The position numbers and the translations under genes were made by a program. Below, one piece after another: positions 15,412 to 62,237 of a DNA stretch of 64,000 nt; the stretch's first letter is position 1, and each line of letters opens with the position of its first letter. Source of the stretch: Chloroflexota bacterium (GTDB lineage Bacteria > Chloroflexota > Dehalococcoidia > Dehalococcoidales > UBA2162); assembly GCA_043804635.1 (NCBI GenBank), contig JAZDIU010000079.1:1125-65124 (forward strand). Direction: 5' to 3'. The notes beneath the pieces are model-generated. The model was given only the letters and a program-made list of their open reading frames with translations. It was not told the DNA's origin and did no database searches.

Positions 15412-15465
15412 CTTGATGTGAAAACCGGAAAATCACATAGCTGACAAAAAGGAGGTGATAGGAAA

Positions 15466-36095: not shown

Positions 36096-36096
36096 A

Positions 36097-37511: not shown

Positions 37512-37523
37512 AGAGGAACGACG

Positions 37524-41963: not shown

Positions 41964-41983
41964 AAATCTAGGAAAGGAACAAG

Positions 41984-43101: not shown

Positions 43102-43975
43102 CAATCTCAAGCAGGCATTTGAGTCCGGCAAATTTGTCATCACTGCCGAAGCAGGTCCCTTGAAAGGGACTTCGACTACGGAAATAGAAGAGGTAGCCCA
43201 CGCCCTGAAAGGGAAAGTGGATGCCATTAACGTTACCGATCAGCAAAGTTCGGTAATGAGGTTGGGTTCGCTGGTTACCTGCCATTTGTTGAAAGATATG
43301 GGGGTTGAGCCTATCTTTCAGTTGACCTGCCGTGACAGAAACCGCATTGCTTTGCAATCAGACTTGCTGAGTGCCTGGGTACTGGGCGTGGTGAACTGCG
43401 TAGCATTGACCGGCGATTTACCTTCATCCGGCGACCATCCTCAAGCTAAGCCGGTTTACGACCTCGATTCGGTGCAATTGCTGAGGGTTATCAAGGGACT
43501 GAACGATGGTAAGGATATGGTCGGAAACGAGTTGAAGGGAAAGCCCGATTTCTATGCCGGTGCGGTGGTGAACCCCGGAGCCGACACCGAGGCTTCCTAC
43601 GAACTTCAAATTATGAAGATGGAAAAGAAACTCGAAGCCGGAGCAAAGTTCTTCCAGACACAGGGTATTTTCGATGCCGAAGTCTTTGCTAAATTTATGA
43701 AGCGCGTCGAGCAGTATAAAGTCCCCATACTGGCGGGAGTGATACCTCTGAAATCAGCCGGTATGGCACGGTTTATGAATAAGAACGTCGCCGGCATCAA
43801 TGTCCCGGAGCCGATGATTGTCAAAATGAATAAGGCGGAAGATAAGACCAAGACCGGCATCGAGATTTGCGGAGAGCTGATTAAATCCCTGAAGGGTATG
43901 TGCCAGGGCGTGCATATTATGCCGATAGGCTGGGAGAAGAAGGTGCCGGAAATTCTGGCAGCGGCCGGTATGTAA
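43091..43975 (+). CDS. metF: Methylenetetrahydrofolate reductase
   Basis: The track ORF is trimmed to ATG 43091 (GGAGG SD), giving MPNSNLKQAFESGKFVITAE... Contains ...TCRDRNRIALQSDLLSAW..ALTGD... Confidence 0.85.
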   Translation: MPNSNLKQAFESGKFVITAEAGPLKGTSTTEIEEVAHALKGKVDAINVTDQQSSVMRLGSLVTCHLLKDMGVEPIFQLTCRDRNRIALQSDLLSAWVLGVVNCVALTGDLPSSGDHPQAKPVYDLDSVQLLRVIKGLNDGKDMVGNELKGKPDFYAGAVVNPGADTEASYELQIMKMEKKLEAGAKFFQTQGIFDAEVFAKFMKRVEQYKVPILAGVIPLKSAGMARFMNKNVAGINVPEPMIVKMNKAEDKTKTGIEICGELIKSLKGMCQGVHIMPIGWEKKVPEILAAAGM

Positions 43976-46427: not shown

Positions 46428-47702
46428 ATGGATAAAGGTATTGAAGAACTGGAGGGAAAAGGAAGGCAGGCTAAAGCGGCTTCACGCCGCCTGGCTTACC
46501 TTTCCACCGATATTAAGAATAAAGCTCTGGTAAACATTTCTAACGACCTCCTGACTAAGAAAGGCGACATCCTTAGAGCCAACGAAATCGACCTTAAGGA
46601 GGCTAAGGCAGCCGGGATGGATGCGGCTATGCTTGACCGCCTGCTCCTGGACTCGAAACGGCTGGAAGGAATGGCCCGTGACGTGCTGGCGGTCGCGGGA
46701 CTTCCCGACCCCGTAGGTGAATCGTTCGAAAGGCGCACCTTACCCAACGGCTTGCGTATCAGCCGAAAAAGAGTCCCTTTAGGCGTCATCGGCGTAATCT
46801 ATGAGAGCCGGCCCAACGTAACCATAGATATTTCCGTTCTCTGTTTGAAGTCGGGCAACGCCGTTATACTCAGAGGCGGCAAAGAAGCCGTTCACTCTAA
46901 CAGCGCCCTGGTCAAGGTGGTGCAGGAGGCAGCTAACCAGGCAGGCGTGCCGGAAGGAGCCGTGCAGTACATCGAGAATACCGACCGCGCTCTGATTAAT
47001 CATATGCTCGGGATGAACACGATTATCGACCTGCTCATCCCGCGCGGGGGCGCCGGCCTGATTAAATTCGCGGCTGAGAACGCCAGTATGCCGGTGGTCA
47101 CCGGCGGCATCGGCGTCTGCCATACCTACGTGGAAGCTACCGCCGATATCCAAAAAGCTGTGGCGATTGCCTACAATGCCAAGGTCCAGCGACCTACCGT
47201 CTGTAATGCACTAGACTGCCTGCTGGTCCATCAAGGAATTGCCGGGGAATATTTACCGGCGATTGCCACCGAGTGGACTAAAGCCGGGGTGGAGATGCAC
47301 TGCGACGGGCGGGCTTTATCGATACTCAGACAATACCCCGACTTTAAGATGTGCCCGGCTACTGACGAAGACTGGGGCAAGGAATTCCTGGCCCTGGTTG
47401 CCGCCGTTAAAGTGGTCGATTCTCTGGATGAAGCACTGGCACACATCGAACGCTACGGCTCAGGACACTCCGAGGCGATTGTCACCGAGGACCGGACTTC
47501 AGCTAAACGCTTCCTGAACGAAGTAGATGCCGCCTGCGTTTACGTCAATGCCAGCACCCGCTTCACCGATGGCGGTCAATTCGGACTGGGAGCGGAAGTG
47601 GGTATCAGCACACAGAAACTGCACGCCCGTGGTCCGATGGGACTTAAGGAGCTGACGAGTTATAAGTGGATTATACGGGGGACAGGGCAGGTAAGACCCT
47701 GA
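46428..47702 (+). CDS. proA: Gamma-glutamyl phosphate reductase
   Basis: 424 aa aldehyde-dehydrogenase fold. Contains ...VIYESRPNVT..., ...CNALDCLLVH..., ...GSGHSEAIVT... Confidence 0.92.
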   Translation: MDKGIEELEGKGRQAKAASRRLAYLSTDIKNKALVNISNDLLTKKGDILRANEIDLKEAKAAGMDAAMLDRLLLDSKRLEGMARDVLAVAGLPDPVGESFERRTLPNGLRISRKRVPLGVIGVIYESRPNVTIDISVLCLKSGNAVILRGGKEAVHSNSALVKVVQEAANQAGVPEGAVQYIENTDRALINHMLGMNTIIDLLIPRGGAGLIKFAAENASMPVVTGGIGVCHTYVEATADIQKAVAIAYNAKVQRPTVCNALDCLLVHQGIAGEYLPAIATEWTKAGVEMHCDGRALSILRQYPDFKMCPATDEDWGKEFLALVAAVKVVDSLDEALAHIERYGSGHSEAIVTEDRTSAKRFLNEVDAACVYVNASTRFTDGGQFGLGAEVGISTQKLHARGPMGLKELTSYKWIIRGTGQVRP

Positions 47703-47713
47703 GGAAAAATTCA

Positions 47714-47748
47714 GATTTATGATTTATGAAATAAGATTTACGAATCCA
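47714..47748. repeat. Tandem heptanucleotide repeats downstream of proA
   Basis: gatttat|gatttat|gaaataa|gatttac|gaatcca. Confidence 0.6.
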
Positions 47749-47791
47749 TCAATCTTAAAATCAAAGCTCTCAGTATTGGATGGTACTTGGG

Positions 47792-48526
47792 CTAGGTTTT
47801 TATCTTGATACCCTCGAGAGTGGCACGCTGGACTTCGAATAGTTCTTTGATGCCTTTTTCGGCTAATGAAAGTAAGGCATCAACGGTTTCTTTGCTGAAA
47901 GGTTTGCCTTCTGCCGTGCCCTGGACTTCGACGAATTTCCCTTCGCTGGTCATAACTACATTAAAATCGACTTCGGCGGTGCAGTCTTCGTCATAACAGA
48001 GGTCCAATAATTTATAACTCTGCACTATGCCCACGCTGGTAGCAGCAATGGCACCTTTCAACGGAATGGAGGATATCACTCCCATATTAGTCAGGGTCTG
48101 AAGTGCCTGCCTCAGAGCTACGTAGCCGCCGGTAATTGCCGCAGTTCTCGTGCCGCCATCCGCCTGAAGAACGTCGCAGTCCACGATGAGGGTCCTTTCA
48201 CCGAGAGCTTTGAAATCGACCACTGCCCTGAGCGACCGCCCGATAAGGCGCTGGATTTCTTGGTTTCTACCGCCGACTCTACCCAGTGATGAGTCGCGGG
48301 GGTTGCGGGTGAGAGTAGCCCTAGGCAACATCGAGTATTCAGCCGTAATCCAGCCAGTCCCACCGCCTTTAAGAAAGGGGGGCACCCGGTCTTCCACACT
48401 TACCGAGCAGACTACCCTTGTCTTGCCCAGCTCGATTAGCGCCGAGCCTTCGGCAAAAGTCTGGAACCCGGTTGTAATCCGCACCGGTCTCAGTTCATCC
48501 CAGGCACGCCCATCAACGCGCTTCAT
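47792..48526 (-). CDS. rph: Ribonuclease PH
   Basis: 244 aa. [15 protein letters not shown]..., [31 protein letters not shown]. Confidence 0.93.
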
Positions 48527-48863: not shown

Positions 48864-50006
48864 GTGACCGACCAACAAAAAATAAACTCCTTCGATATCG
48901 GGCCTTACCGGCCGCCGAGTGAGGCTTATTCTTTGCTTATCCGGGCAACAATTAACTGCCCCTGGAACCGGTGCCGGTTTTGTAATATGTACAAGGGAGC
49001 AAAATTCCAACTCCGGACGGTCGATGAAATCAAGCAGGATATCGAACAGGCGAAAACGATTCAAGACAAAATAGTCGAGCTGGCACGTGACTCAGGCGGG
49101 AGTATTGAGGAAGCCGCGGCGGCTGTGCTCAGAAGCTCTACCAGTCATTCTATCGGCAATGTTGCCCTCTGGCTTTACGGCGGTGGCGAGAACGCTTTCC
49201 TTCAGGACGCCAATAGCCTGGTTATGCGAACCGTTGAGTTAGCCGATATAATAAGATTTCTTCGCACAACCCTGCCTACCATTAAAAGGGTAACCAGCTA
49301 TGGCCGGTCGAAGACAGCGGCTAAGAAAACACCGGAAGAAATGGCTGAACTGAAGGAGGCGGGTTTATCCCGTATTCACATCGGGCTGGAAACCGGCTAC
49401 GACCCCCTGCTGGAATATATGGATAAGGGAGTTACTGCTACAGAAGAAATTGCTGGCGGCAGAAGAGTGGTGGAATCGGGCATATCTTTATGCGAATATG
49501 TCCTGCTTGGGCTGGGTGGTAAGAAAATGTGGCGGGAGCATGCTATCGAAACGGCGAGGGTACTTAACGAAATAAACCCCGATTTTATCAGGATAAGGAC
49601 TCTGCGACTTAATAGCCGCATCCCTTTGCTGGACGAAATAGAAAAAGGTAATTTTACCCGTCTGACCGACGAAGAAACTGTGGAAGAAGAGAGACTGCTG
49701 ATTGAAAACCTGGAATGCACCTCGAACTTCGTAAGCGACCATATTTCTAACCTGCTCCAGGAAGTCGAGGGCAAACTTCCCGAAGATAAGGGGAAAATGC
49801 TGGCAATTATCGATGAGTTCCGAGCGTTGTCGCCCGAAGAGAAGATTAATTTTAGAGTCGGCCGCCGGATGGGAATATACGTGAGATTAGACGATTTACA
49901 AAATCCGGGTAAGCGCCAGTCAGTCAATGATGTGTTACAGAGGCTTAAGCGGGCCGGACGGCAGATAGATGAAGCGATAGATACACTGGTGGAGGGATAT
50001 TTATGA
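48864..50006 (+). CDS. Radical SAM protein with a non-canonical CX4CX2C cluster motif
   Basis: INCPWNRCRFCNMY. GTG start 7 nt after a TATAAT box (48851-48856) with no SD, so the start is uncertain and the mRNA may be leaderless. Confidence 0.75.
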   Translation: MTDQQKINSFDIGPYRPPSEAYSLLIRATINCPWNRCRFCNMYKGAKFQLRTVDEIKQDIEQAKTIQDKIVELARDSGGSIEEAAAAVLRSSTSHSIGNVALWLYGGGENAFLQDANSLVMRTVELADIIRFLRTTLPTIKRVTSYGRSKTAAKKTPEEMAELKEAGLSRIHIGLETGYDPLLEYMDKGVTATEEIAGGRRVVESGISLCEYVLLGLGGKKMWREHAIETARVLNEINPDFIRIRTLRLNSRIPLLDEIEKGNFTRLTDEETVEEERLLIENLECTSNFVSDHISNLLQEVEGKLPEDKGKMLAIIDEFRALSPEEKINFRVGRRMGIYVRLDDLQNPGKRQSVNDVLQRLKRAGRQIDEAIDTLVEGYL

Positions 50007-50479
50007 GTCTGGAACAGGAAGTCGGCTTTATGCTCCATCAAAAAAAGCTGACCTTTGGCACAGTTGAGTCAGCCAGCGGCGGGCTCATCTCTCACCTCAT
50101 CACTAACGTCGCCGGCTGTTCCTGTTATTTTAAAGGCTCGATTATCGCTTATAGTAATGAAATTAAAATCAATGTAGTCGGTGTAAAAGAAGCTACCATC
50201 GATAAATATGGAGCGGTTAGCGCTCCTGTGGTTAAGGAAATGGCGGCCGGCGGAAGGAAGGTTTTGGGCGTTGATATTTGCCTGGCTGATACCGGCATTG
50301 CCGGACCTACCGGCGCCACCCCGGGGAAGCCTCTCGGGCTGTTTTATATCGGGATGTCACACGAAGACGGCACGTATAGCTGGAGACATATTTTCAAAGG
50401 CGACCGCGAGCAAAATAAAATGGCAGCTGCCACGGCTGCGCTAAAATGGCTCAAAGAATATCTAACAAGCGTAAAGTAA
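50003..50479 (+). CDS. CinA C-terminal-domain protein (PncC-type nicotinamide-nucleotide amidohydrolase)
   Basis: 158 aa. TVESASGGLISHLITNV...IAYSNE.K...GV....I..YGAVS. ATGA overlap with the radical SAM gene. Confidence 0.8.
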   Translation: MSLEQEVGFMLHQKKLTFGTVESASGGLISHLITNVAGCSCYFKGSIIAYSNEIKINVVGVKEATIDKYGAVSAPVVKEMAAGGRKVLGVDICLADTGIAGPTGATPGKPLGLFYIGMSHEDGTYSWRHIFKGDREQNKMAAATAALKWLKEYLTSVK

Positions 50480-50480
50480 A

Positions 50481-50825
50481 ATGCAGCAATACCGTGAAGT
50501 TACCAGTAGAGACTGGCTAAAAGCGTTCATCAATATCCTCTTGTTTGTGGCTTTGTTGGTATACGGCGCCATAGTTTTAGCCCAACGATGGTGGCCTATC
50601 GGATTTATTATCTGGCTGGTGGTGATAGTCGGCGGGGGGACTTATTCATTCGTTAGATGGCATGCCAGGAATTTCGCCTACCAGTGTCCCAATTGCGAAA
50701 ATGAATTTGAAATTTCCACGGGTACCGATTTTGTCACACCCAACGGTTTTACCCGTAAATATCTGAAGTGTCCCAAATGTAACCAGCGAGCCTGGATGAA
50801 GACACTAAAGAAGGAGGGAATATGA
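50481..50825 (+). CDS. Membrane-anchored zinc-ribbon protein (2 TM plus CPNC...CPKC)
   Basis: 114 aa. It starts 1 nt after the upstream stop, and its own stop overlaps the next ATG (ATGA). Confidence 0.6.
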   Translation: MQQYREVTSRDWLKAFINILLFVALLVYGAIVLAQRWWPIGFIIWLVVIVGGGTYSFVRWHARNFAYQCPNCENEFEISTGTDFVTPNGFTRKYLKCPKCNQRAWMKTLKKEGI

Positions 50826-51493
50826 ACACCGAATGCGCCAAATGTAATAAGACAGTGTGCTACACCGAGCGTTTCCTCGAAGGACCGGATAATTGCCCGA
50901 CGAAGGTCAAGAATGACGTTATCAAGCAAGCCTGGCGGGAGTATGAAAAACCCGAAGTAAATGAGTTCGCCCGGCAGGCTTCCGTCCAGGAATTCGAATG
51001 CTATATGAACCTGCCCGAAGGCAGAACACCTAGGCTCCCCCGAGTCGAGGAGATTGTTCAGTTCAGCCGGAAAATGAAATATCATAAGCTGGGAGTTGCT
51101 TCCTGTCTGGGACTCAAGAGCGAGGCTGAAATGTTAAACCGGATTCTGGAAAATAGAGGCTTTGAGGTCGTTTCCGTATGTTGCAAGGTGGGAGCCATCC
51201 CCAAGGAGCAGCTTGGTCTTCGCAAGGACCAGAAAATCGCCGGACCCGATATCTACGAGTCGATGTGTAATCCCATCTCTCAGGCGATGATTTTGAACGA
51301 TGCCGGGGTCGATTTTAATATACTACTGGGGTTGTGTGTGGGGCACGATTCTCTGTTTATCAAATACGCCAAGGCACCGATTACCGTCCTGGTGGCTAAA
51401 GACAGGGTGCTAGGTCATAACCCTGTAGCCGGTTTATACCTGGCGAACTCTTATTATCGAAAGCTGCTGAGGAAAGAGAGCAAGAGCGACTGA
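50822..51493 (+). CDS. DUF1847-family metal-binding protein
   Basis: 223 aa. N-terminal CAKCNKTVCYTE...CP. My recollection of DUF1847 is moderate. Confidence 0.55.
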   Translation: MNTECAKCNKTVCYTERFLEGPDNCPTKVKNDVIKQAWREYEKPEVNEFARQASVQEFECYMNLPEGRTPRLPRVEEIVQFSRKMKYHKLGVASCLGLKSEAEMLNRILENRGFEVVSVCCKVGAIPKEQLGLRKDQKIAGPDIYESMCNPISQAMILNDAGVDFNILLGLCVGHDSLFIKYAKAPITVLVAKDRVLGHNPVAGLYLANSYYRKLLRKESKSD

Positions 51494-51499
51494 TTTCTT

Positions 51500-51889
51500 C
51501 TATTTAGGTCGTTCCAGTAACTCGACCACTACGTTGTCCTGAGCAACGAAGTGCGAAATCTTGACCCCCGATGCACCCTGTGTAATTTCTCGCAGGAATT
51601 TTACGCCGGCTTTTTTCAAATCGGCCACGGCGGCTTCTATGTTGTCGGTTCTCAACCCGTAATGTTCTAGGACTGGGATAGTCTTACCATCGCTGGTGGG
51701 TACCGGCATCGGGTTTGTAGTCGATACTACGAACCTTGTTCCATTCAGGTCCATAGTGATAAGCATGCGCCCGCCAGGCAGCTCACGTTTATCAACGGTA
51801 CGGGCACCGAACATCTTTTCATAGTATTCTGCAGTAGCTGCGGGAGCGGAACCGCTCAGATGAACGTGGTCGAACCAGTATTTGGGCAT
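51500..51889 (-). CDS. VOC (glyoxalase/bleomycin-resistance/dioxygenase) family protein
   Basis: 129 aa. FDHVHLSG...YYEKMFGA... beta-alpha-beta-beta-beta pattern. Confidence 0.7.
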   Translation of the reverse strand: MPKYWFDHVHLSGSAPAATAEYYEKMFGARTVDKRELPGGRMLITMDLNGTRFVVSTTNPMPVPTSDGKTIPVLEHYGLRTDNIEAAVADLKKAGVKFLREITQGASGVKISHFVAQDNVVVELLERPK

Positions 51890-51960
51890 TTTATACCTCC
51901 TCGAATTCTATTAATCCGGGCACTATCATATTACAATAGTCCCGATAAGACAAGACAAAT

Positions 51961-51989
51961 ATATGAGGGGGCATTTAGCCCCCTCATAT
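51961..51989 (-). terminator. Terminator hairpin after the SDR operon
   Basis: atatgagggggc-attta-gccccctcatat (12-bp stem). The minus-strand RNA is followed by AUUUGUCUU. Confidence 0.55.
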
Positions 51990-52027
51990 TCCACATTATC
52001 AGGGTTAATCCAACCAAACCAAAAACA

Positions 52028-52837
52028 CTACTCAGCAGGTCCTTTGGGTTGTGGCGGTGGTCCTACCAGAGCTCCACCATCGACGATAACCGTGATTCCG
52101 GTAACGAAGCTGGCGGCATCCGACGCCAGGTAGAGACAGGCACCGACTAAATCTTCCGGCTCTCCAAGGCGGTGTAAAGGTGTCCGGTTTATAGCGGCTT
52201 GACCCGCTTCCGGCGACCTCCAGAGCATTTCACTAAGCCGGGTCTTAATTGTCCCGGGAGCGATAGCGTTAGCCCTGATATTATACTGTCCCCATTCTCT
52301 AGCCATCGACTGGGTTAACATTATTACCCCGGCCTTGCTGATGCCGTAAATCTGCAAGTTGCTGGGTCTTAATCCACCGACCGAGGCAGTATTAATAATG
52401 CTGCCACCCTTGCCCTGCTTCACCATAACCTTTGCCACCATCTGTCCCAGCCAGAAGATACTTCTCAGGTTAACATTCATATCGGTCTCCCAGAGAAAAT
52501 CTTCGGCGTCGATGAGCGGGGAGACGGCGGGGTTGGTGCCGGCATTGTTCATCAGGATATCGATGTGTCCGAATTCGGCTACTACCTTGTCGACCAGATT
52601 CTTCAGTTCATCTTTCTTAGCCACGTGGGCGGCGATTGGAAAAGCTTTCCTACCTTTGGCTTTGATTTCCTCAGCTACTTTTTCCAATTCAGGAAGTTTT
52701 CGTGAGGCGAGGGCAACGTCTGCCCCAGCATCGGCAAATCCCAGAGCAACTGCCCGGCCGATGCCCCGGCCACCACCGGTGACGAGTGCTACCTTACCCT
52801 CCAGAGAAAACATTTTGGCTATTTTAGCTGTATCCAT
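52028..52837 (-). CDS. Short-chain dehydrogenase/reductase (SDR)
   Basis: Trimmed to ATG 52837 (MDTAKIAKMF...). TGGGRGIGRA, NNAG, and a Y...K catalytic pair (YGISKAG). Confidence 0.85.
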   Translation of the reverse strand: MDTAKIAKMFSLEGKVALVTGGGRGIGRAVALGFADAGADVALASRKLPELEKVAEEIKAKGRKAFPIAAHVAKKDELKNLVDKVVAEFGHIDILMNNAGTNPAVSPLIDAEDFLWETDMNVNLRSIFWLGQMVAKVMVKQGKGGSIINTASVGGLRPSNLQIYGISKAGVIMLTQSMAREWGQYNIRANAIAPGTIKTRLSEMLWRSPEAGQAAINRTPLHRLGEPEDLVGACLYLASDAASFVTGITVIVDGGALVGPPPQPKGPAE

Positions 52838-52842
52838 CTCTT

Positions 52843-53643
52843 CTATCCTTTCGCTCTGTAATAGACAGGGGCTGATTCCCCCAGGTCGTGCCACTGGATA
52901 TATTCCTCAGCCCTGGCGACACATCCGGTAACGCCCTTGGCATTCTGCTGGGCAAGGAAAATAGCCGCTTTCACCATTTTATCAGGGGTGGTCAGTTGCG
53001 ACTTGTCGTAGGTGGGCGGCAGGTTGAAGACGAACCCTTCCGAAGCAACGGGCTGTAACGGTTTGTAGCAGTTGACAGCGATATTATATTTGCTAAGTTC
53101 GGCGGCGACGGCTTCAGTGAAGTGCTCGACAGCAGCTTTTGCCGTGCCGTAGGCGGCGCCGGTAACACTGCCGACCCGGCGGACTGCGGCATCGGAACTG
53201 GTGTTGATAATGCTGCCGCCCTTCAGTTTTATCATCGTGGGCAGAACCGCTTTGATACAATTGTAAGTACCGTTAATATTGACGCCCATTACCAGATTCC
53301 AGCGCTTGAGCGTAGTGTCCACGAAGGGCCCGGGAGTAGCGACACCGGCATTGTTAACCAGGATATCTATCCGGCCCCACTCGTCCAACACTTTTTTGAC
53401 CATCGCCTGAACTTCAGTCTCTTCCATAATGTTAGTCTGAATGGCGATAGCTTTTCCGCCGGCGGCTTTAATCTCATCAGCAGTCTTGTTAATTGTGCCG
53501 GGTAAGCCGGACTTGAGCGCCTCTACGGTCCGGGCTACGATGGCAACTTTAGCTCCCTCTTTGGCAAAGCCAATGGCCACCGCTTTACCGATTCCCCGGC
53601 TGGCGCCGGTAACTATGGCAACTTTTCCATCAAGTACTCCCAT
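52843..53643 (-). CDS. Short-chain dehydrogenase/reductase (SDR)
   Basis: TGASRGIGKA, NNAG, YGTAKAA. Its stop lies 5 nt before the next SDR start. Confidence 0.85.
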   Translation of the reverse strand: MGVLDGKVAIVTGASRGIGKAVAIGFAKEGAKVAIVARTVEALKSGLPGTINKTADEIKAAGGKAIAIQTNIMEETEVQAMVKKVLDEWGRIDILVNNAGVATPGPFVDTTLKRWNLVMGVNINGTYNCIKAVLPTMIKLKGGSIINTSSDAAVRRVGSVTGAAYGTAKAAVEHFTEAVAAELSKYNIAVNCYKPLQPVASEGFVFNLPPTYDKSQLTTPDKMVKAAIFLAQQNAKGVTGCVARAEEYIQWHDLGESAPVYYRAKG

Positions 53644-53707
53644 TTTATCCTCCTTCTAATACGGATTCTTCGTCCTTCAGCCGAAGGACCCAGAATGACA
53701 AGCGAAG

Positions 53708-55195
53708 TTAAACTACCCATTTAGGCGGCCAGGGCGGTAATTCCTTCAGGAACGGGTGCTTTTCCCATCCCTTAATCCCGGCGACCCTCTTGGCAATAGA
53801 TTTATATTTCTCCCAATCGGCATAAGCATACATAGACATTATCTGAGCCGCCAGAGAGCCTTCGGCGTGAATGGTGGTGGCATCATGACCGTGACCGATG
53901 AGGTCCTTTACCATTCTAACGGCTTTTAGACGATCCTCAGTCGGGATACCATCCTTACCAGCGAGATACTTCTCGATGTAAGGTCTCTCCTCGGGATTAT
54001 TCCAGTCTTTGTAATTGAAAACTGTGCTGACGATACCACCGGCAATATCCGAGATGAGCTTGGAAACCTGGTGCTGGTCGTTAGCGAACATAAACTTCGC
54101 CATATTTATGTAGGTTATATTAGGCGACACCATGCCGATATCGGGGAATGTGTCCGGATGCTCGCAGCCGGCCTGGGCTAGAACATCGACTATCTGACAA
54201 TGGCAGGCAAGCCAGGCAAGTTTTTCTTGAATATGAGGATATCTATCGATGCCGTTATATTCCGCCATCAGAGCGGCAGCACCGGTCTCTTCTTCGGTGG
54301 ATATTACTTTGTGACAGGTGCCGTAAAGACGATGGAAAACGCCGAAGAGCCATGCCTGGTCTCTGGAGAACTCCCATTCGCCAGCCATAAAGACACGATT
54401 CCAGGGAATAAAAACGTCATCGAAGACCAGCATAACCTCGCTGATGCCAGCGGTACGCGAACTCACAGGCCAGTTCCAATCGGCTTCCTCGCCTATATCC
54501 TGGTAATAACCGGGTGAAGTAATCAATTTTAGACCTTTAGCATTCGCCGGAACGGCAAAGACCACAGCGTAGTCCTTATCTTCTTCACGGTGGGCACGGC
54601 AGGGCGAAACAATAAATTCATTGGCGGTGGGGCTGGCGCTGATGTGCATCTTGGCACCCCGCACCACGATGCCATCCTTTTTCTTATCGACGATTCTGAC
54701 ATAGAAGTCCTTGTGCTGAACCTGAGCCGACGGACGTAACCCACGGTTCCCCTTAACATCGGTAATAGCACCGGTGATTGCTGGATCGGTTTTCAGTAGG
54801 TGCTGATGATAATCTTTTATGGCATCCGAATAGTGAGTTCCCTTGGCTTTATCGATTCTGGCAGCGACGATGCCTGAGGCGGCAAGGGCATCGGGACCCA
54901 TACCGGGCATACGGGCGCCCATTCGCATAGTGTTAATATAGATTTGCCGGCGTCTAATCAGGTCTTCAGAAGATTTGGGCTGGTTAAAGAGGAACATTAT
55001 TTTTTCGCCCTTCTCCTCGGTAACGAGGAGCTTACTCCATTTGGGGTCGTTAGCCAAATGATAACTGAGGGCGACGCCGTTGATGCTTGCTTTGAATTTT
55101 GGGTGCTTGGTCATATCTTTTATTTTCTCACCCTCAAAATAAAGCGCCCGACCATCTCTTAAGCTTTCCACATACTGTTCCGGGGTCCTAATCAT
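53708..55195 (-). CDS. AbfD/HpaB-family flavoprotein (4-hydroxybutyryl-CoA dehydratase / 4-hydroxyphenylacetate 3-hydroxylase superfamily)
   Basis: 495 aa. MIRTPEQYVESLRDGRALYFEGEKI, TDVKGNRGLRPSAQ, DGIVVRGAKMH. It lacks the N-terminal CxxxC pair that I recall ligating the Fe-S cluster in clostridial AbfD. Confidence 0.75.
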   Translation of the reverse strand: MIRTPEQYVESLRDGRALYFEGEKIKDMTKHPKFKASINGVALSYHLANDPKWSKLLVTEEKGEKIMFLFNQPKSSEDLIRRRQIYINTMRMGARMPGMGPDALAASGIVAARIDKAKGTHYSDAIKDYHQHLLKTDPAITGAITDVKGNRGLRPSAQVQHKDFYVRIVDKKKDGIVVRGAKMHISASPTANEFIVSPCRAHREEDKDYAVVFAVPANAKGLKLITSPGYYQDIGEEADWNWPVSSRTAGISEVMLVFDDVFIPWNRVFMAGEWEFSRDQAWLFGVFHRLYGTCHKVISTEEETGAAALMAEYNGIDRYPHIQEKLAWLACHCQIVDVLAQAGCEHPDTFPDIGMVSPNITYINMAKFMFANDQHQVSKLISDIAGGIVSTVFNYKDWNNPEERPYIEKYLAGKDGIPTEDRLKAVRMVKDLIGHGHDATTIHAEGSLAAQIMSMYAYADWEKYKSIAKRVAGIKGWEKHPFLKELPPWPPKWVV

Positions 55196-55293
55196 CGTAG
55201 CCTCCTTTTATTTTTAAATAACGCTCGTAAAAATACGAACTGCGCAGTTGCTCAGTATAAGAAGTTAACTGCTCTTTGTCAAGAGTAAAAGGG

Positions 55294-55324
55294 TTGACAA
55301 TCATTCCCAATCGGGGTGTATCAT
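55294..55324 (+). promoter_or_regulatory. Candidate promoter of paralog A (TTGACA, 19 nt spacer, TATCAT)
   Basis: The block TTGACAA...CGGGGTGTATCATTAGGC recurs upstream of paralog B as TTGACAA...CGGGTGTATGATTAAGGC. Confidence 0.4.
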
Positions 55325-55351
55325 TAGGCAGGCTGAATTAAGGAGGGAAAA

Positions 55352-56905
55352 TTGAGTAAACGTTTAGATAAAGTTAAGTTAGTAAAAGGGCGGCAGTGGG
55401 AGCGGCAGGACCCTATAGATAACATCGGGGTATCTACTTATGTTTTAATCAAGGATGCGATTCAAGAAGGAAGAAACGATCTGGCTAAAGATTTAGCCGA
55501 TTACGTTTACTTCTGGGAGACCAAGTTCGCCCGCGATACCAATTTCGACTTGATTGCGGGCTGGCCCGAATTTGTCAGAATCAACTACGGCGAGTATGCG
55601 GAAATCGAAGACCAGAGAGCGGCGATGATACAGACACGTATGTGGAAATTGCCGTTTACCGAAAAGCCTACCGTCCAGAAACGCGAGCAAAGCCCTTACG
55701 ATTACACTATGGGATACGGGTGGAGGATGTTGAAATACCACCGGATGGGGAAAAACGATGGAGCCGGCGGGTTTACTATCGAGGAATATCCAGACAGATA
55801 TGAGTTCGTCTGGGACCCGTGCTACAGCGGCGGGAGGCCGAGACGTGGCGACCCCGTTACCGGCACTCCGCCACGAACGAGTCCGCTCTATACCGGCAAT
55901 CAGGTACCACATCCCTGGTCGTGGGGGAAGACAGGAGTCCCCGGCTATTGTATGCACTGTGCCCTCATTCACAATATTATGGATGTCGAGCAGAGGGGAT
56001 ACTTGCAGTGGGCTTCGGGGTATCCCGACGACCCCTGGAAGCCCTGCACATACATCGCCTACAAAGATGTCGACTGGATTCCCGAGGAATACTATACACG
56101 AATTGGGAGAACTAAACCGAAGGTAACTTCGACCGCACCCAGACCAAAAGACGTGAACAAGCTAATCAGGGTGATACATTCGGACGAACTGGGACCGGAG
56201 TGGGTGCCGACGCTCACTATGCTGAAGAAAGCTATCGATGCCGGGAAAAAGAAGGAGGCTCTAAAGATTGTAGACCAGATGCGTGACGAAATGGGACGGA
56301 TCAGTATGCTTATCTGGAACTGGTCTTGGATGGAATTAATTATAGAGAAATATGGCTACAACGAGCTTTACCATGCTTTGAGGTCGATCCCCTGTTCATA
56401 CGCACTACCACCGGCTCCTGAGGAGCCAAGACCGACCAAAGCCGACATACCCAATGCCGAGGAACGGGCACGGAGAGGCGCGTTATGGGGCAGGTCCGAC
56501 CGAAGCGGTCCAAATGCCGATTGTTCGGTCAACATCATCGACGAGCCGGATAGAGTTGTAATGGAACTCGCTCCCTGCGGCAGCGGCGGACGAGGTCTGA
56601 TGACGATAGATACGCCCGGGATGGAGAGGGGACCTGTGACTGGAAACCCATGGAATTTCAAGACAACACCCGTAGCTCACCCTGTCGCCTGGAACAAGGT
56701 AGGAGTTCCCAATTATTGTGCCCGTTGCTGCGTCCATATGGAGATGGGGTCTTTATCGCGATACGGTTATCTTACCACAGTCATAGAGCGTCCGGAGAAT
56801 GCCACCGACCCGAATTGCCGGTGGTTCTTCTACAGGGACGTGGACGATATTCCCGAGAAATACTACACAAGGATTGGGGCTAAGAAACCGGCGAGGCAGA
56901 AATAG
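55352..56905 (+). CDS. Unknown-family protein, paralog A (517 aa): internally duplicated, 2 x 4 invariant Cys
   Basis: TTG start after AAGGAGGG. Begins MSKRLDKVKLVKG... Motifs are DPCYSGGR...YCMHC...PCTYIAYKDVDWIPEEYYTRIG and APCGSGGR...YCARCC...NCRWFFYRDVDDIPEKYYTRIG. Confidence 0.8.
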   Translation: MSKRLDKVKLVKGRQWERQDPIDNIGVSTYVLIKDAIQEGRNDLAKDLADYVYFWETKFARDTNFDLIAGWPEFVRINYGEYAEIEDQRAAMIQTRMWKLPFTEKPTVQKREQSPYDYTMGYGWRMLKYHRMGKNDGAGGFTIEEYPDRYEFVWDPCYSGGRPRRGDPVTGTPPRTSPLYTGNQVPHPWSWGKTGVPGYCMHCALIHNIMDVEQRGYLQWASGYPDDPWKPCTYIAYKDVDWIPEEYYTRIGRTKPKVTSTAPRPKDVNKLIRVIHSDELGPEWVPTLTMLKKAIDAGKKKEALKIVDQMRDEMGRISMLIWNWSWMELIIEKYGYNELYHALRSIPCSYALPPAPEEPRPTKADIPNAEERARRGALWGRSDRSGPNADCSVNIIDEPDRVVMELAPCGSGGRGLMTIDTPGMERGPVTGNPWNFKTTPVAHPVAWNKVGVPNYCARCCVHMEMGSLSRYGYLTTVIERPENATDPNCRWFFYRDVDDIPEKYYTRIGAKKPARQK

Positions 56906-56997
56906 AAATTCGGAATTCGAATCCTTCGGCAAGCTCAGGACAGGTATTGAAATACGAAACAAATTCAAAACCACAGATCAAAAGTTAAAAAATGACT

Positions 56998-57073
56998 GGA
57001 TTCCGGCTTCCGCCGGAATGACAAAGATACCCACCTCCGCCACCGGACGGGCGGGTTAGAAACCCGCCCCTAC
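56998..57073. repeat. Cluster of REP-like palindromes between paralogs A and B
   Basis: ggattccggcttccgccggaatgac (56998-57022) and gggcgggtt-aga-aacccgccc (about 57049-57069). Confidence 0.6.
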
Positions 57074-57110
57074 GAAATCGGATTGGTCTCGCAATGGCAT
57101 TAGAAAAAGT

Positions 57111-57141
57111 TTGACAACGTTTAGCGTAGCGGGTGTATGAT
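57111..57141 (+). promoter_or_regulatory. Candidate promoter of paralog B (TTGACA, 19 nt spacer, TATGAT)
   Basis: Same geometry and flanking bases as the element at 55294-55324. Confidence 0.4.
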
Positions 57142-57236
57142 TAAGGCGATTGTAGGCACATACGTAAGTAATACGCACGATAGCCGATGAATGCTCGGAG
57201 ATATTTAAAATTATAGAAGGAGGTAAGGAATAAATA

Positions 57237-58901
57237 ATGAGCAAACGGCTGGATAAGGTCAAATTAGTCAAGGGGTTCAAGTGGGAAAGACAGGACGACC
57301 TGGATAATCAGGGAGTCCCGACCTACGACCTCGTCAAGGATGCGATAAAAGAGGGCAAGACCGACATAGCTAAAGACCTGCTGGATTATTTGTACTTCTG
57401 GGAGATTAAGTTCGTCCGCGACTCAAACATCGACATCGTTGGGGGGTTCCCGCAGTTCTGGATGACCAGATATGGCGAGGAGCAGCTCTTCGATGTTTAC
57501 TGGGAATTGCTCTGCCGGCAACGCGGCGTGGCTTCCTGGCCTGTCCCACCGGTTGGACTAAAACACCGCCAGATGACCGGTTTCGACTACGCTATGGAGC
57601 ACGCTATCTGGATGGTTAGACCCCACCGGATGGGCCGATTAGATGGAACAGGCGGATTCGTCCTAGAAGAATACGAAGACAGGTATGAAGTGGTCTGGGA
57701 CCCATGCTATACAGGCGGCCGGACCAGACGGGGCGACCCAATTGCCAGTATGCCGCCGCACACGGCGCCACCATTTAACTATGCGACGAACAAAGTCCCA
57801 CACCCCTGGACGTGGGGCAAGACTGGAGTAACCGGTTACTGCATACACTGCACGTTACTGCACGAGCTAATGGACGTAGCACAGACGGATGGATATTTAG
57901 GACAGTGGGTCAGCGGCTATCCAGAAAATCCCTGGGACCCCTGCCGCTATATTACCTATAAGAATGTCGACTGGATTCCGGAGAAATATTATACGAGGCT
58001 CGGCAAAACCAAACCCAAGCCAAAGGCACCAATCCCCAAGTTCAAGGATGTAACCAAACCTATTAAAGTTACCCATTCACACGAACTGGGACCGTTCTGG
58101 AAAGTTACCGATGGTGAGCACTGGATGAACTTCGTCCCCAGAATAAAGAAAGCACTGGACGAGGGCAAAAAAGCGAAAGCCTTAAAGCTTGTCGATATGC
58201 TGCGGGCAGAGACAGCTCTCTGGCACGCCCGATACCCGATCAGATGGAACTGGTCGTGGATAGACCTGGTTATCGAAAGATTCGGTTACGACGAGGTACA
58301 TTACGCTCTAAGGTCGCTTTATTCCCGAATGGAACCACCGCTGGCGCCGGACGAGCCGAAGCTAACCAAAGACCAGATTCCAAGTGCCGAAGTAAGAGCC
58401 AAGAAGGCAGCCGCCTGGGGCAGAGGCGACCTCAGCGGACCCAACTCCGAAGGCTCGGTCAAAATCATCGACGAACCAGACCGGATTGTAATGGAGCTTA
58501 ATCCCTGCGGCAGCGTGGGACGAAACCTGCTGCCAATGGATAAAGTGGACGACCTCACCGCCGAGATAATCAAAGAACTGGTGCTGCCCGCAGGACCCGC
58601 TTACTCAGGGCCAAGAGGGCCGTTAACGGAAGCACCCTTCAACTACAAGGTAACCACCAAAGCCCATCCAATAGGCTGGGGCAAGGTGGGCATACCCAAC
58701 CTCTGCACACGGTGCTGCGTCCAGTTCGAGATGGACGCGGTAGCCCGCACCGGATACCTCACCACCGTTATCGAGCGGCCAGAGAATGCCACCGACCCAA
58801 ATTGCCGCTGGTTCTTCTACAAGAACTTGGACGATATCCCGGAAAAGTACTACACCAGAATCGGGATGAAGAAACCAGCCCGCCAGGCAAAAAAGAAATA
58901 A
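57237..58901 (+). CDS. Unknown-family protein, paralog B (554 aa)
   Basis: MSKRLDKVKLVKGFKWERQD...; DPCYTGGR...YCIHC...PCRYITYKNVDWIPEKYYTRLG; NPCGSVGR...LCTRCC...NCRWFFYKNLDDIPEKYYTRIG. Confidence 0.8.
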   Translation: MSKRLDKVKLVKGFKWERQDDLDNQGVPTYDLVKDAIKEGKTDIAKDLLDYLYFWEIKFVRDSNIDIVGGFPQFWMTRYGEEQLFDVYWELLCRQRGVASWPVPPVGLKHRQMTGFDYAMEHAIWMVRPHRMGRLDGTGGFVLEEYEDRYEVVWDPCYTGGRTRRGDPIASMPPHTAPPFNYATNKVPHPWTWGKTGVTGYCIHCTLLHELMDVAQTDGYLGQWVSGYPENPWDPCRYITYKNVDWIPEKYYTRLGKTKPKPKAPIPKFKDVTKPIKVTHSHELGPFWKVTDGEHWMNFVPRIKKALDEGKKAKALKLVDMLRAETALWHARYPIRWNWSWIDLVIERFGYDEVHYALRSLYSRMEPPLAPDEPKLTKDQIPSAEVRAKKAAAWGRGDLSGPNSEGSVKIIDEPDRIVMELNPCGSVGRNLLPMDKVDDLTAEIIKELVLPAGPAYSGPRGPLTEAPFNYKVTTKAHPIGWGKVGIPNLCTRCCVQFEMDAVARTGYLTTVIERPENATDPNCRWFFYKNLDDIPEKYYTRIGMKKPARQAKKK

Positions 58902-58908
58902 GGTTAAG

Positions 58909-58937
58909 ACGAGTCCTCGCAAAAAGCGAGGACTCGT
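58909..58937 (+). terminator. Hairpin plus T-rich tail between paralogs B and C
   Basis: acgagtcctcgc-aaaaa-gcgaggactcgt followed by TATTTAT. Confidence 0.55.
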
Positions 58938-58968
58938 TATTTATAAGCAATAAAAGAAGGAGGTGTAA

Positions 58969-60567
58969 ATGTCCAAGCGTCTGGATAAGGTTAAACTGGT
59001 AAGAGGAAAACCGTGGGAAAGAATGGACTCCCTGGATAACATCGGGGTGTCCACGTATGGGCTCATCAAGGACGCCATAAAGGAAGGGCAAAACGAACTG
59101 GCTAAGGACCTGATAGATTACCTTTATTTCCGCGAGATTAAGTTCGTCCTCGACGCCAATATCGATTTGGTCGGGGGATTCCCCCAGTTCATGATGACTC
59201 ACTATGGCGAAGATGAGCTATATGGTGATTATAAAGACCTTCTAGTGCGTAACCGCGGGCTGACCAAATGGCCGATGCCGCCAGTCAAGAAACGGGATAT
59301 CAGCAACGTAGAATGGGCTTTCGATTACGCCGCCAGAATGCTGAGACTACACCGGATGGGTAAAATGGATGGGACGGCCGGTGTCAATATCAACGAATAT
59401 GAAGATAGGGTCGAAATTCTCTGGGACCCATGCTATACCGGCGGCCGGACCAGACGGGGCGACCCGATTGCGAGTATGCCCGCCCACACAGCACACCCCT
59501 TCAATTATACAACCAATAAGCTCCCGCACTTCTGGACGGGGGGTATGACCGGAGTAACCGGGTACTGCATTCATTGCTTTATCCTCCATATGATAATGGA
59601 CTACGAGCAGACAGGCTACTTAGGACAGTGGATTGTCGGTTACCCGGAGAATCCCTGGGAACCGTGCCCCTATATCGCCTATAAGGACACCGACTGGATT
59701 CCGGCGAAATACTATGAGATAGTCGGGGCAAAAAAGCCTAAGGTGATGTCAAAGAAACCGGCACCCAAAAACCCGAAACTTATTAGAACGTACCATTCGG
59801 ACGAGCTTGGTCCACGCTTTATAAACTCGGTACCGCTCTTGAGAAAAACCATCGATGCGGGCAAAAAAGAAGAGGCATTAAAGCTGGTAGACCGGATGGA
59901 TGCCGAGAGACGGATTCACCGATATCCCCTGACCTGGAACTGGGGATGGTCGGACACTATCGTGAGAAAGCACGGCTATAATGAGCTTTATCACGCCATA
60001 AGGTCGCTTTATTCCCGATACGAGCCGCCGCTGGAAGCGGGAGAACACAGGCCTACGAAGTCGGAACTGCCGAGCGCTGAAGACAGGGTACGGAAAGCGG
60101 CCCTCTGGGGCAGAGGCGACCGCAGCGGTCCCGACGAGAGCTCGGTCAAAATCGTCGACGAGGGTAGCCGGTATGTAATGGAGCTTAATCCGTGCGGCAG
60201 CGTGGGGAGAGGCTTAATGAGCTGGGATTCACTGGACCCGGTCACCGCAGCAGTCGCTAAAGACTTGAAGGTAACCGGAATCGAGAGGGGACCTTATACC
60301 AAATCTCCTTTCAATTTCGGAGTATCAACAGAGCGTCATCCGGTACTGTGGAACAAGTTGGGCGTTCCTCACGCCTGTGCCCGAAGCTGCGTCCATTTCG
60401 AGACATCCGCAGTAGCCAAACATGGATATCTCACCACGGTAATAGAACGCTCCGAGGACCCTGAAGACCCGAATTGCCGCTGGTTCTTCTATAAGGACCT
60501 GGACGATGTTCCTGAGAAATTCTACACCCGGATTGGGGCGAAGAAGCCGCCCCTGTCAAAGAAGTAG
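58969..60567 (+). CDS. Unknown-family protein, paralog C (532 aa)
   Basis: AGGAGGTG SD. MSKRLDKVKLVRGKPWERMD...; DPCYTGGR...YCIHC...PCPYIAYKDTDWIPAKYY; NPCGSVGR...ACARSC...NCRWFFYKDLDDVPEKFYTRIG. Confidence 0.8.
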   Translation: MSKRLDKVKLVRGKPWERMDSLDNIGVSTYGLIKDAIKEGQNELAKDLIDYLYFREIKFVLDANIDLVGGFPQFMMTHYGEDELYGDYKDLLVRNRGLTKWPMPPVKKRDISNVEWAFDYAARMLRLHRMGKMDGTAGVNINEYEDRVEILWDPCYTGGRTRRGDPIASMPAHTAHPFNYTTNKLPHFWTGGMTGVTGYCIHCFILHMIMDYEQTGYLGQWIVGYPENPWEPCPYIAYKDTDWIPAKYYEIVGAKKPKVMSKKPAPKNPKLIRTYHSDELGPRFINSVPLLRKTIDAGKKEEALKLVDRMDAERRIHRYPLTWNWGWSDTIVRKHGYNELYHAIRSLYSRYEPPLEAGEHRPTKSELPSAEDRVRKAALWGRGDRSGPDESSVKIVDEGSRYVMELNPCGSVGRGLMSWDSLDPVTAAVAKDLKVTGIERGPYTKSPFNFGVSTERHPVLWNKLGVPHACARSCVHFETSAVAKHGYLTTVIERSEDPEDPNCRWFFYKDLDDVPEKFYTRIGAKKPPLSKK

Positions 60568-60575
60568 AATCAAGG

Positions 60576-60634
60576 TTCTTCACCCGAAGGATGGTTCGAC
60601 AAACTCACCACGAACGGGTCCTTCGGGTGAAGAA
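60576..60634 (+). terminator. Long hairpin after paralog C (16-bp perfect stem, structured 27-nt loop)
   Basis: ttcttcacccgaagga...tccttcgggtgaagaa followed by AAAATTC. It is more REP-like than a classical terminator. Confidence 0.45.
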
Positions 60635-60774
60635 AAATTCTCTAATACGCCTCCCCTTTGTAAAAGGGGAAATAAGGGGGATTTTCAAGACTGATGAAAA
60701 GAAAATCCCTCTCAATCTCCCTTTAAGAAAGGGAGAAGTTAGTTTTAAATTATAAACAACCAGGGGGTAACGTT

Positions 60775-62025
60775 ATGTCGAAATCAGTCGTCTCTATAGT
60801 CAAAGGCACGAACGCCGAGAAAATGGTGGAGGAAGCTCTTAACCTGCTGGGCGGCGTTACTAATTTGATAAGGCCCGGCTCGAGCGTGGTCATCAAACCT
60901 AACGCCATCGGCGGGTATCCACCGGAACGTGCCGGGGACACCAGTCCGGCAGTAATCAGCGCCGTCATCAAAGAACTGCGTAAAGCCCAGCCGAAAGAGA
61001 TTATTATGGCTGAGTCAGGCGGCGGGACGAAGGACACAATGGACTCGATGACCACAAACGGTCAGAAGAAAGCCGCCGAAGATGCGGGTATCGACCGTAT
61101 TGTCGATATCAAAAAAGAGAAAGACCTGATAAGGATACCAATCCGCGACCACAGGTCGGCTATGGAGTTCCTAGACCTGCCTAGATTTCTAGTCGAAGCC
61201 GACCACGTCGTGAATCTACCTATCTTTAAGACACACGTCAGTATGGTCTTCACCTGCGCTCTGAAGAATATGAAAGGAATCGTCCAGGGACTGGTCCACT
61301 TCCAGATGCACCAGACGGACCTCGTTCAAGGGATGCTGGACTTATGGTCTATCTTCAAATCCGATCTGGCAATAGTGGATATGATTCGCCCCGGAGAGGG
61401 CTATGGGCCTCTTGCCGCAATGCCGACCGATTTCGGCTGTATCGTCGCCGGCAAAGACCCAGTGGCGGTAGATGCTACCTGCTGCCGGATGACCGGCGTC
61501 GATATGTGGAAGGTGCCCTTCTTCGAGCCTGCCCATCAGCGAGGTATCGGCACTTATGATGAAAAGGAAATCGAGATTCGCGGCAAGCAAATAAAAGACG
61601 TTTATAAGCAGTTATGGGTGCCCTATCTGGAAGGGTTCGGCGAATATCCGGAATATAACGTCATTTCTAAAGGAGCCTGTGCTCTCTGCGAGAGCCTGAC
61701 TGCCTATAGCCTGGAGAGAATGATACCGACCGGCGATTACGATAAGAACAAGGGCATTACCATCATTATGGGTAAGGACGCCAAGCCGCCTAAGGGCGTG
61801 AAACCGCGCGACCTTATTATTATGGGCGACTGCGTTCCCAAACAATACCGCGACCAGGGTATATTCGTCTGGGGATGCCCTCCACTGGAAATGTTCCCGA
61901 CGTGGCCGATAATCGACCGAGAGGTAGAAAAGGGTCCGCCCTGGAAAAGAAACTACCGGGAAGAGACTCCTCCTTTCCTGGAGTATCTGAAGAAAAAGAG
62001 AGAACGGTCTAAAAAGAAGAGCTAA
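60775..62025 (+). CDS. DUF362 domain-containing protein
   Basis: 416 aa. The GSSVVIKPNAIGGYPPERAGDTSPAVISAVIKEL and PIFKTHVSMVFTCALKNMKG patterns fit DUF362 as I remember it. The C-terminus is Cys-rich (CALCES, GDCVP, WGCPP). Confidence 0.65.
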   Translation: MSKSVVSIVKGTNAEKMVEEALNLLGGVTNLIRPGSSVVIKPNAIGGYPPERAGDTSPAVISAVIKELRKAQPKEIIMAESGGGTKDTMDSMTTNGQKKAAEDAGIDRIVDIKKEKDLIRIPIRDHRSAMEFLDLPRFLVEADHVVNLPIFKTHVSMVFTCALKNMKGIVQGLVHFQMHQTDLVQGMLDLWSIFKSDLAIVDMIRPGEGYGPLAAMPTDFGCIVAGKDPVAVDATCCRMTGVDMWKVPFFEPAHQRGIGTYDEKEIEIRGKQIKDVYKQLWVPYLEGFGEYPEYNVISKGACALCESLTAYSLERMIPTGDYDKNKGITIIMGKDAKPPKGVKPRDLIIMGDCVPKQYRDQGIFVWGCPPLEMFPTWPIIDREVEKGPPWKRNYREETPPFLEYLKKKRERSKKKS

Positions 62026-62046
62026 GGTATAAAAAGGCAGATAGTA

Positions 62047-62083
62047 AAATGCCCTTCCTTAATAAAATCAGGAAGGGCATTTT
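62047..62083 (+). terminator. Intrinsic terminator after the DUF362 gene
   Basis: aaaatgcccttcc-(11 nt)-ggaagggcatttt followed by CTTTG. Confidence 0.6.
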
Positions 62084-62237
62084 CTTTGACCATACCAACT
62101 GCATCTAAAGTTTTTTACATTCAGGCTTTATCAATTCGTAAAGAATATATATTTGACACCAGCCTTCTAAAACTGGGAGAATATATTCATAGTCTCTGCA
62201 TAGACTTTTGCAGGTCTACTTTTCAGGATGGTAGTCT

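Follow-up and report, generated by a model that had tools for sequence, protein, structure and literature searches.

The nickel-pincer nucleotide enzymes of the LarA superfamily (clan CL0471; PDB 5HUQ, 6C1W, 9EIA and 9Q3J) are the closest described relatives, by clan and by fold, of the DUF362 proteins, for which neither the literature found nor Pfam or NCBIfam gives a function. DUF362 shares its Pfam clan with DUF2088, the N-terminal family of LarA, and, in LarA, the catalytic His174, the cofactor-tethering Lys184 and the nickel ligand His200 are spaced by 10 and 16 residues (PMC11770544); meanwhile the nickel-pincer enzyme field is gaining new scaffolds (PMC13524815, PMC12611868). Two further described systems are relevant here, namely the HdrB-type CCG proteins, which carry duplicated Cys motifs and non-cubane iron-sulphur (Fe-S) clusters, and AbfD, the 4-hydroxybutyryl-CoA dehydratase/vinylacetyl-CoA isomerase. 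We analysed a 10.5-kb divergent gene cluster (positions 51500-62025) in a 64,000-nucleotide stretch, called the window below, of a Chloroflexota metagenome-assembled genome (MAG; GCA_043804635.1). Three Cys-rich paralogs, A, B and C, precede a DUF362 gene on the plus strand (the right arm), and an AbfD/HpaB-like flavoprotein, two short-chain dehydrogenases/reductases (SDRs) and a VOC-fold protein are encoded on the minus strand (the left arm). A first-pass annotation had read this cluster as possibly one metabolic module, and the gene order, strands and coordinates that it gave are all confirmed by the open reading frame (ORF) map and Pfam. We find that the paralogs belong to an undescribed and rare family of two-domain, twice-Cys4 proteins, and that a paralog together with a DUF362 gene is a conserved unit. 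The right-arm genes are:

55352..56905, plus strand: paralog A, 517 residues, TTG start, A-type subfamily with the conserved MSKRLDKVKLVK N-terminus (ORF map, alignment)
57237..58901, plus strand: paralog B, 554 residues, internal duplication of residues 1-270 and 271-554 (BLASTP of the halves)
58969..60567, plus strand: paralog C, 532 residues, C-type subfamily (alignment)
60775..62025, plus strand: DUF362 protein, 416 residues, predicted LarA-like fold, C-terminal Cys motif C302/C305/C353/C368 (PF04015, 1.5e-45)

None of the three paralogs (locus tags V1767_07610, V1767_07615 and V1767_07620 on the window contig) has a match in Pfam or NCBIfam, and homologs of B number 38 among 5.8 billion proteins, nearly all of them from Chloroflexota MAGs. 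A full-length member (P0012), 61% identical to B, lies on a 3.3-kb contig assigned to a Promethearchaeota (Asgard) MAG and reflects either horizontal transfer or a binning error. The halves of B align with each other (BLASTP E 2e-22, 31% identity) and each protein is therefore an internal duplication, in which AlphaFold2 predicts, for every half, a helical region and, after it, a small alpha/beta domain with the Cys residues. The model of B is confident (pLDDT 93.4, pTM 0.92) and finds no fold match in the PDB (Foldseek, best E 0.6); a paralog profile likewise retrieved nothing meaningful from the PDB sequences. In a 30-sequence alignment (B numbering), each half has four Cys that are invariant or almost invariant, namely C157, C202, C205 and C236 (first half) and C424, C490, C493 or C494, and C523 (second half). 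In paralog C, the third of the second-half positions reads CARSC, so that C494 takes the place of C493. H189, W191, H204 and H209 are also conserved, as are the segments WDPC[YG][TS]GG and YK[DN]xDxIPExYYxRIG. A, B and C all fit the definition of the two-domain family, that is the duplication, four Cys per half and the MSKRLDKVKLVK N-terminus, and the array is visible at the DNA level as direct repeats of 65-74% identity.

These two-domain proteins are part of a wider superfamily. A HMMER scan of 1.84 billion cluster representatives returned 547 clusters (defined at 50% identity) with E<=1e-3, most of them single-module proteins of about 245 or 330-380 residues, from genomes and metagenomes of Acidobacteria, Alphaproteobacteria, Desulfobacterales, Actinobacteria and Mesobacillus maritimus. 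Like the paralogs, the single-domain relatives combine a helical region with a four-Cys domain, at 28-36% identity to either half, and they keep the same motif (PC[GY][ST]GG..RR / [HY]xW[ST]WGK..YCxHC....E / PCxWxxYK....PE..Y.R.G..K); this motif and the conserved H, E, R and K are retained in distant relatives from both aerobes and anaerobes. The conservation of the four-Cys pattern, aerobes included, points to a putative metal site. The single-domain relatives have no Pfam match and, in the six that were searched, no NCBIfam match, and ten longer members of the superfamily gave no real Pfam match to a fused domain. Actinobacterial proteins of 569 residues (L007 3100-4809 and L037 291-2000), with an SDR downstream, match both halves at about 24% identity and may be an independent two-module lineage.

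The contexts of the two-domain homologs were obtained by exact-protein look-ups, and the window proteins were compared with 50 loci in a tblastn matrix (E<1e-10). The first-pass annotation had suggested that its module be checked by the co-occurrence of paralog homologs with AbfD-like, SDR and DUF362 genes, and for DUF362 the association is strongly supported: an intact DUF362 gene lies directly beside a homolog in nine contexts, namely in the window, in L001, L041, L047, L049, L011, L014 and L039, and on the P0036 contig. In L001, the DUF362 gene is upstream of the homolog and overlaps it by 4 nt. DUF362 remnants lie beside or near a homolog in L045, L046 and L048; in L012, L013 and L034, the short stretch downstream showed no DUF362 gene. 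Three further pairs (P0004/P0194, P0009/P0196 and P0035/P0238) are suggested only by contigs of identical length and source. The association spans the A-type, B-type and P0011/P0036-type subfamilies. The other neighbours of the two-domain homologs include TRAP/DctP components in four contexts, Amidohydro_2 and DUF6282 in three each, tandem cyclase-family genes and SDRs in two each, and an OYE-like reductase and a Peripla_BP_6 ABC system in one each. Unrelated and variable neighbourhoods had been named beforehand as an argument against a single module; the neighbours other than DUF362 do vary, which in part speaks against it.

The three paralogs are old subfamilies rather than the products of a recent tandem duplication, because they are closer to proteins of other MAGs than to one another: pairwise identity among A, B and C is 55-61%, whereas A is 71-73% identical to P0020, P0021, P0022 and P0024, B is 72-74% identical to P0002 and P0003, and C is 71% identical to P0004. 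They fall into three separate clades of a neighbour-joining tree. The MAG of the window holds five copies in all, the two outside the window being P0017 and P0018, and the MAG GCA_042578625.1 holds at least seven.

The partner protein in the window scores 156 bits with the Pfam DUF362 model against a 24-bit cutoff, and the partners in other loci (415-430 residues) are 56-65% identical to it and share its C-terminal C-x2-C...C...C motif (C302/C305/C353/C368 in the window protein). All of the top 16 Foldseek matches of its AlphaFold2 model in the PDB (built from a 38-sequence alignment, pLDDT 90.8) are LarA-family structures (probability 1.00, E 1.5e-6 to 4.7e-5), with alignments of 357-445 columns that cover nearly the whole chain and TM-scores of only 0.33-0.38. 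A route from DUF362 to LarA through sequence was rejected, the 38-sequence profile having retrieved nothing from the PDB sequences even at E<=10. The invariant DUF362 residues H154, K164 and H179 are spaced by 10 and 15, close to the spacing of the LarA residues given above; in LarA_Sp, Lys195 and His211 are 16 apart, compared with 15 for K164 and H179. Their possible equivalence to the LarA residues is a lead argued from spacing. DUF362 also differs from LarA in several respects: sequence identity is 8-15%, no equivalent of LarA His108 was identified, and the DUF362 protein has the extra C-terminal four-Cys motif, which is not described for LarA. DUF6282 genes recur beside DUF362 genes or remnants in the Chloroflexota loci L045, L048 and L049 and may encode another regular partner of this DUF362 subfamily.

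We propose, with about as much confidence as doubt, that the cluster consists of two separable units, the right-arm pair of paralog(s) and DUF362 and a lineage-specific, acyl-CoA-type left arm. In the first unit (55352-62025), each paralog would join the shared DUF362 protein in a complex that contains metal, most likely Fe-S clusters or zinc, and the paralogs would supply substrate specificity; three subfamilies sharing one DUF362 protein in the window fit specificity subunits with a common partner. The substrates would likely be small transported (hydroxy)carboxylates, as judged from the chemistry of the LarA superfamily and from the TRAP/ABC uptake, Amidohydro_2, cyclase-family and SDR genes found next to the pair elsewhere. 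The second unit (51500-55195) may process the same carbon skeleton before or after the first and would not be an obligatory partner. Several observations weigh against this proposal. The P0029/P0031 clade has no DUF362 gene on its 10.6-kb contig. Unlike the paralogs, the single-domain relatives have one module, sit in other operons and were never beside DUF362 in the loci examined; the Cys domain therefore has a DUF362-independent role. None of larB, larC and larE turned up among the window ORFs scanned or among the genes listed for L001 and L041-L049. Finally, most DUF362-Cys4 proteins work without a paralog: this subfamily counts 847 matches (E<=1e-10), of which more than 120 reach at least 55% identity, against 38 members of the paralog family, and the dependence is therefore one-sided, the paralogs being nearly always beside DUF362 and not the reverse.

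It is unlikely, in our opinion, that the whole 10.5-kb cluster encodes one pathway that handles successive intermediates under common control from the divergent spacer. This idea extends the one-module reading of the first-pass annotation, which is supported in part: the DUF362 pairing recurs in other genomes, the AbfD-like and VOC genes are absent from the 49 other loci and the SDRs are only loosely associated. The left-arm genes are:

53708..55195, minus strand: HpaB-superfamily flavoprotein, 495 residues (HpaB_N 9e-78, HpaB 3e-41)
52843..53643, minus strand: SDR1, 266 residues, (3R)-hydroxyacyl-CoA dehydrogenase-like (adh_short 3e-53, 150-181 bits)
52028..52837, minus strand: SDR2, 269 residues from an internal ATG, sugar-acid/hydroxysteroid dehydrogenase type (adh_short_C2 2e-62, 186-211 bits)
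51500..51889, minus strand: VOC/glyoxalase-fold protein, 129 residues, last gene of the arm, downstream of a terminator (PF00903, 9e-11)

Neither the AbfD/HpaB-like flavoprotein nor the VOC protein has a match in any of the 49 other loci, and their association with the paralogs is not supported. SDRs flank a homolog in L001 and L041, which favours a single pathway to some extent, as does the single-domain relative of L044, whose neighbours are three SDRs, a VOC gene, a GFO family gene, Amidohydro_2 and rhaM; but the SDRs of the other loci are only 30-40% identical to those of the window and are therefore not their orthologs, a level that amounts to generic similarity. In L045 (GCA_042578625.1), positions 5809-9197 correspond to window positions 46428-48526 (Aldedh 79% and RNase PH 84% identical). 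The two neighbourhoods are orthologous and differ in their cargo, which in L045 comprises a DUF362 remnant, a DctP-like gene and an A-type homolog, and none of the radical SAM, CinA, DUF1847 or left-arm genes.

What the left arm may do can be suggested from its closest relatives. The flavoprotein has the HpaB_N and HpaB_C architecture of AbfD, which is its best match in the PDB (1U8V, 6e-66, full length), with the vinylacetyl-CoA isomerase 6VJR also found (2.5e-61). It had been labelled a member of the radical-dehydratase/hydroxylase superfamily: its kinship with AbfD holds, and the radical dehydratase part of the label is overstated. The cluster ligands of AbfD 1U8V, which we take to be C99, C103, H292 and C299, are only half kept, the AbfD segment TASCFQRC aligning (HMMER) with MGARMPG, where both C99 and C103 are absent, and the equivalents of H292 and C299 being preserved in FHR.LYGTCH. 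A [4Fe-4S] radical dehydratase mechanism thus seems unlikely. The flavoprotein is also far under the cutoffs of the HpaB monooxygenase equivalogs (TIGR02309, 188.6 vs 480.2; TIGR02310, 144 vs 885). SDR1 best matches the (3R)-hydroxyacyl-CoA dehydrogenase of MFE-2 (2ET6, 9e-54; next match 1.5e-35), and SDR2 best matches 2-deoxy-D-gluconate 3-dehydrogenase (4Z9Y, 3e-53). By their adh_short domains, the two are classical SDRs; they reach no equivalog cutoff, the sole exception being the subfamily NF005559 for SDR2 (263 bits vs a 215-bit cutoff). As annotated before, their genes are 5 nt apart, the stop of SDR1 ending at 52843 and the ATG of SDR2 lying at 52837; a longer GTG ORF of SDR2 reaches 52894, and the ATG at 52837 is most likely the start. 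The best NCBIfam match of the VOC protein is TIGR03081, at 34.6 bits vs a cutoff of 114.95, a score that does not identify it as a methylmalonyl-CoA epimerase. With an AbfD-like flavoprotein, a 2ET6-like SDR1 and a VOC protein that is weakly epimerase-like, the left arm looks like an acyl-CoA-type enzyme set. A phloroglucinol-type pathway was considered and dropped, since the window SDRs are nearest to sugar-acid and hydroxyacyl-CoA dehydrogenases and the cyclase-family neighbours of other loci match only generic metal hydrolases.

The transcription signals also bear on a single pathway. The 156-bp divergent spacer (55196-55351) and both terminators that had been annotated are present, the terminators folding far better than shuffled sequence. 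The signals found in and around the two arms are:

55254..55282, minus strand: promoter-like site of the left arm, TTGACA-17-TATACT, 11 of 12 consensus matches (consensus match only)
55294..55326, plus strand: promoter-like box before paralog A, common to B (alignment and pattern count)
57111..57143, plus strand: promoter-like box before paralog B, second copy of the A box (alignment and pattern count)
51961..51989, minus strand: terminator-like hairpin between SDR2 and the VOC gene, 12-bp stem with seven GC pairs (-24.5 kcal/mol, z -5.8)
57049..57069, plus strand: GC-rich hairpin after paralog A, no T-run (-20.7 kcal/mol, z -3.2)
60577..60736, plus strand: structured spacer between paralog C and DUF362, made up of a 16-bp stem, another hairpin and, at 60716-60736, a terminator-like stem (-51.4 kcal/mol, z -4.9)
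62043..62085, plus strand: intrinsic terminator ending the right arm, 14-bp stem followed by a U-tract (UUUUCUUU) (-21 kcal/mol, z -5.4)

The left-arm site and the A box lie back to back, with their -35 boxes about 11 bp apart, and clean terminators bound the region, two features that a single co-regulated pathway would explain. The box of the right arm is, however, not shared by the left-arm promoter. A and B are each preceded by their own copy, of the form TTGACAA-N13/14-GGGTGTAT[CG]ATTA, and the pattern TTGACAN{10,20}GGTGTAT has two matches in the window vs 0.03 expected; the box occurs nowhere else in the window and was not found upstream of homologs in the 50 loci scanned. A regulatory box common to the family was thus rejected, as no copy precedes homologs elsewhere and the box is local to the window. 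Because A and B have separate boxes, a hairpin follows A, and the 207-nt spacer between C and DUF362 is strongly structured, the plus arm is not one plain operon. The structure of this last spacer may serve transcript attenuation or stabilisation. It has no credible Rfam match, and a riboswitch or other known RNA in the spacers was rejected, the sole Rfam match being a spurious miRNA model below threshold.

A second possibility, which we regard as quite unlikely, is that the paralogs serve for electron transfer alone: two Fe-S clusters in each would wire the LarA-fold DUF362 protein to ferredoxin and take the place of the ferredoxin domains found as fusions in other DUF362 proteins. Each paralog does have two four-Cys motifs, the DUF362 protein has one of its own, and Pfam describes DUF362 as present in some iron-sulphur proteins. 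The host would suit such a role: the window encodes several radical SAM enzymes and, at 35166-43975, a methylene-THF reductase complex (MTHFR, an HdrC-like Fer4 protein, an HdrB-like CCG protein, a 1479-residue HdrA-like flavoprotein with multiple Fe-S domains, MetV (DUF5981) and a second MTHFR), and the MetF/MetV and Hdr-like complex together with the radical SAM enzymes indicates, from gene content, a Wood-Ljungdahl-type anaerobe. The HdrB-type CCG proteins offer an analogy only, with two homologous Cys modules beside a redox enzyme in an anaerobe. There is no homology, however: PF02754 detects the HdrB-like gene of the window (36663-37511) and not the paralogs, whose Cys spacing (C-x44-C-x2-C-x30-C) is different. 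Against the electron-transfer reading, proteins of 520-550 residues that are helical over a large part and conserve many polar residues besides Cys are unlike a simple carrier, three divergent subfamilies per one DUF362 protein are hard to explain for a generic wire, and single-domain relatives without DUF362 exist in aerobic Acidobacteria, Alphaproteobacteria and Mesobacillus.

The operons of the single-domain relatives show how diverse the surroundings of this Cys domain are. SDRs are their commonest Pfam neighbours (13 of 119 neighbour ORFs). In Acidobacteria (L008, L021, L023, L024 and L026), the relative lies in a tight operon of overlapping genes between an MBL-lactonase-like gene and genes for a 466-residue isomerase-like protein and an SDR (family match at about position 10000 in L021 and L023). 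The 466-residue protein resembles fucose or sulfoquinovose isomerase and the operon is divergent from a GH106 alpha-L-rhamnosidase gene, which suggests a role in deoxy-sugar catabolism; that this protein could be a hidden DUF362 was rejected (hhalign probability 0.1%). In Alphaproteobacteria (L004, L017 and L030), the order is CoA ligase, thiolase-like, relative and OCD (ornithine cyclodeaminase/mu-crystallin), and a nickel-pincer-dependent ornithine cyclodeaminase is mentioned in a 2026 paper (PMC13524815). In Desulfobacterales, the relative stands between 2-oxoacid dehydrogenase E2/E3 and acyl-CoA dehydrogenase genes. Such varied neighbourhoods (rhamnosidase-SDR-isomerase; CoA ligase-thiolase-OCD; 2-oxoacid dehydrogenase with acyl-CoA dehydrogenase), the succession of a helical bundle and a four-Cys domain, and the lack of any fusion to a catalytic domain among the members scanned could suit a non-enzymatic zinc-binding sensor, chaperone or scaffold beside variable catabolic operons, which we nevertheless judge very improbable, given that no DNA-binding or signalling domain is present, that the genes overlap or abut metabolic genes in tight operons, and that the glycine-rich loop PCGSGG, together with the R, K, H and E residues that are conserved, resembles a ligand site.

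Coming back to the two-unit proposal, it is tempting to speculate on a more specific form of its first unit. The DUF362 protein could be an enzyme of LarA fold in which K164/H179 hold a nickel-pincer cofactor, or a related pyridinium one, and could be wired, through its own four-Cys site and the two of a paralog, to an electron carrier, with the paralogs as substrate-specific subunits of a fold not seen before. This is a long shot. If it were true, the hydride chemistry of LarA would, in a DUF362 protein wired in this way, become net redox or dehydroxylation chemistry.

Elsewhere in the window, positions 14209-16776 encode a radical SAM protein followed by a Memo-AMMECR1 fusion, that is the AmmeMemoRadiSam trio in a fused form. 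Directly upstream of the cluster (48864-51493), genes for a radical SAM protein, a CinA-type domain, a small membrane zinc-ribbon protein and a Cys-rich DUF1847 protein are co-directional and overlap or abut one another; all of them are missing from L045.

A catabolic island of redox enzymes in an anaerobe is a familiar finding, and unannotated Cys-rich proteins are also common in MAGs. What is new here is (i), a superfamily of about 550 clusters to which neither Pfam nor NCBIfam has an entry, (ii), a confident model without a fold match in the PDB, (iii), the reproducible association with one DUF362 subfamily and, (iv), structural evidence, from a predicted fold, linking the DUF362 partner to the nickel-pincer racemases. 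Should the pair prove ordinary, the paralog being for example a zinc-stabilised accessory protein, the gain would be limited to better annotation. The catabolism of anaerobic Chloroflexota is poorly known and the pair provides a concrete two-protein target; DUF362 being a large sister family of the nickel-pincer lactate racemases, this pair could reveal the role of DUF362 in these bacteria.

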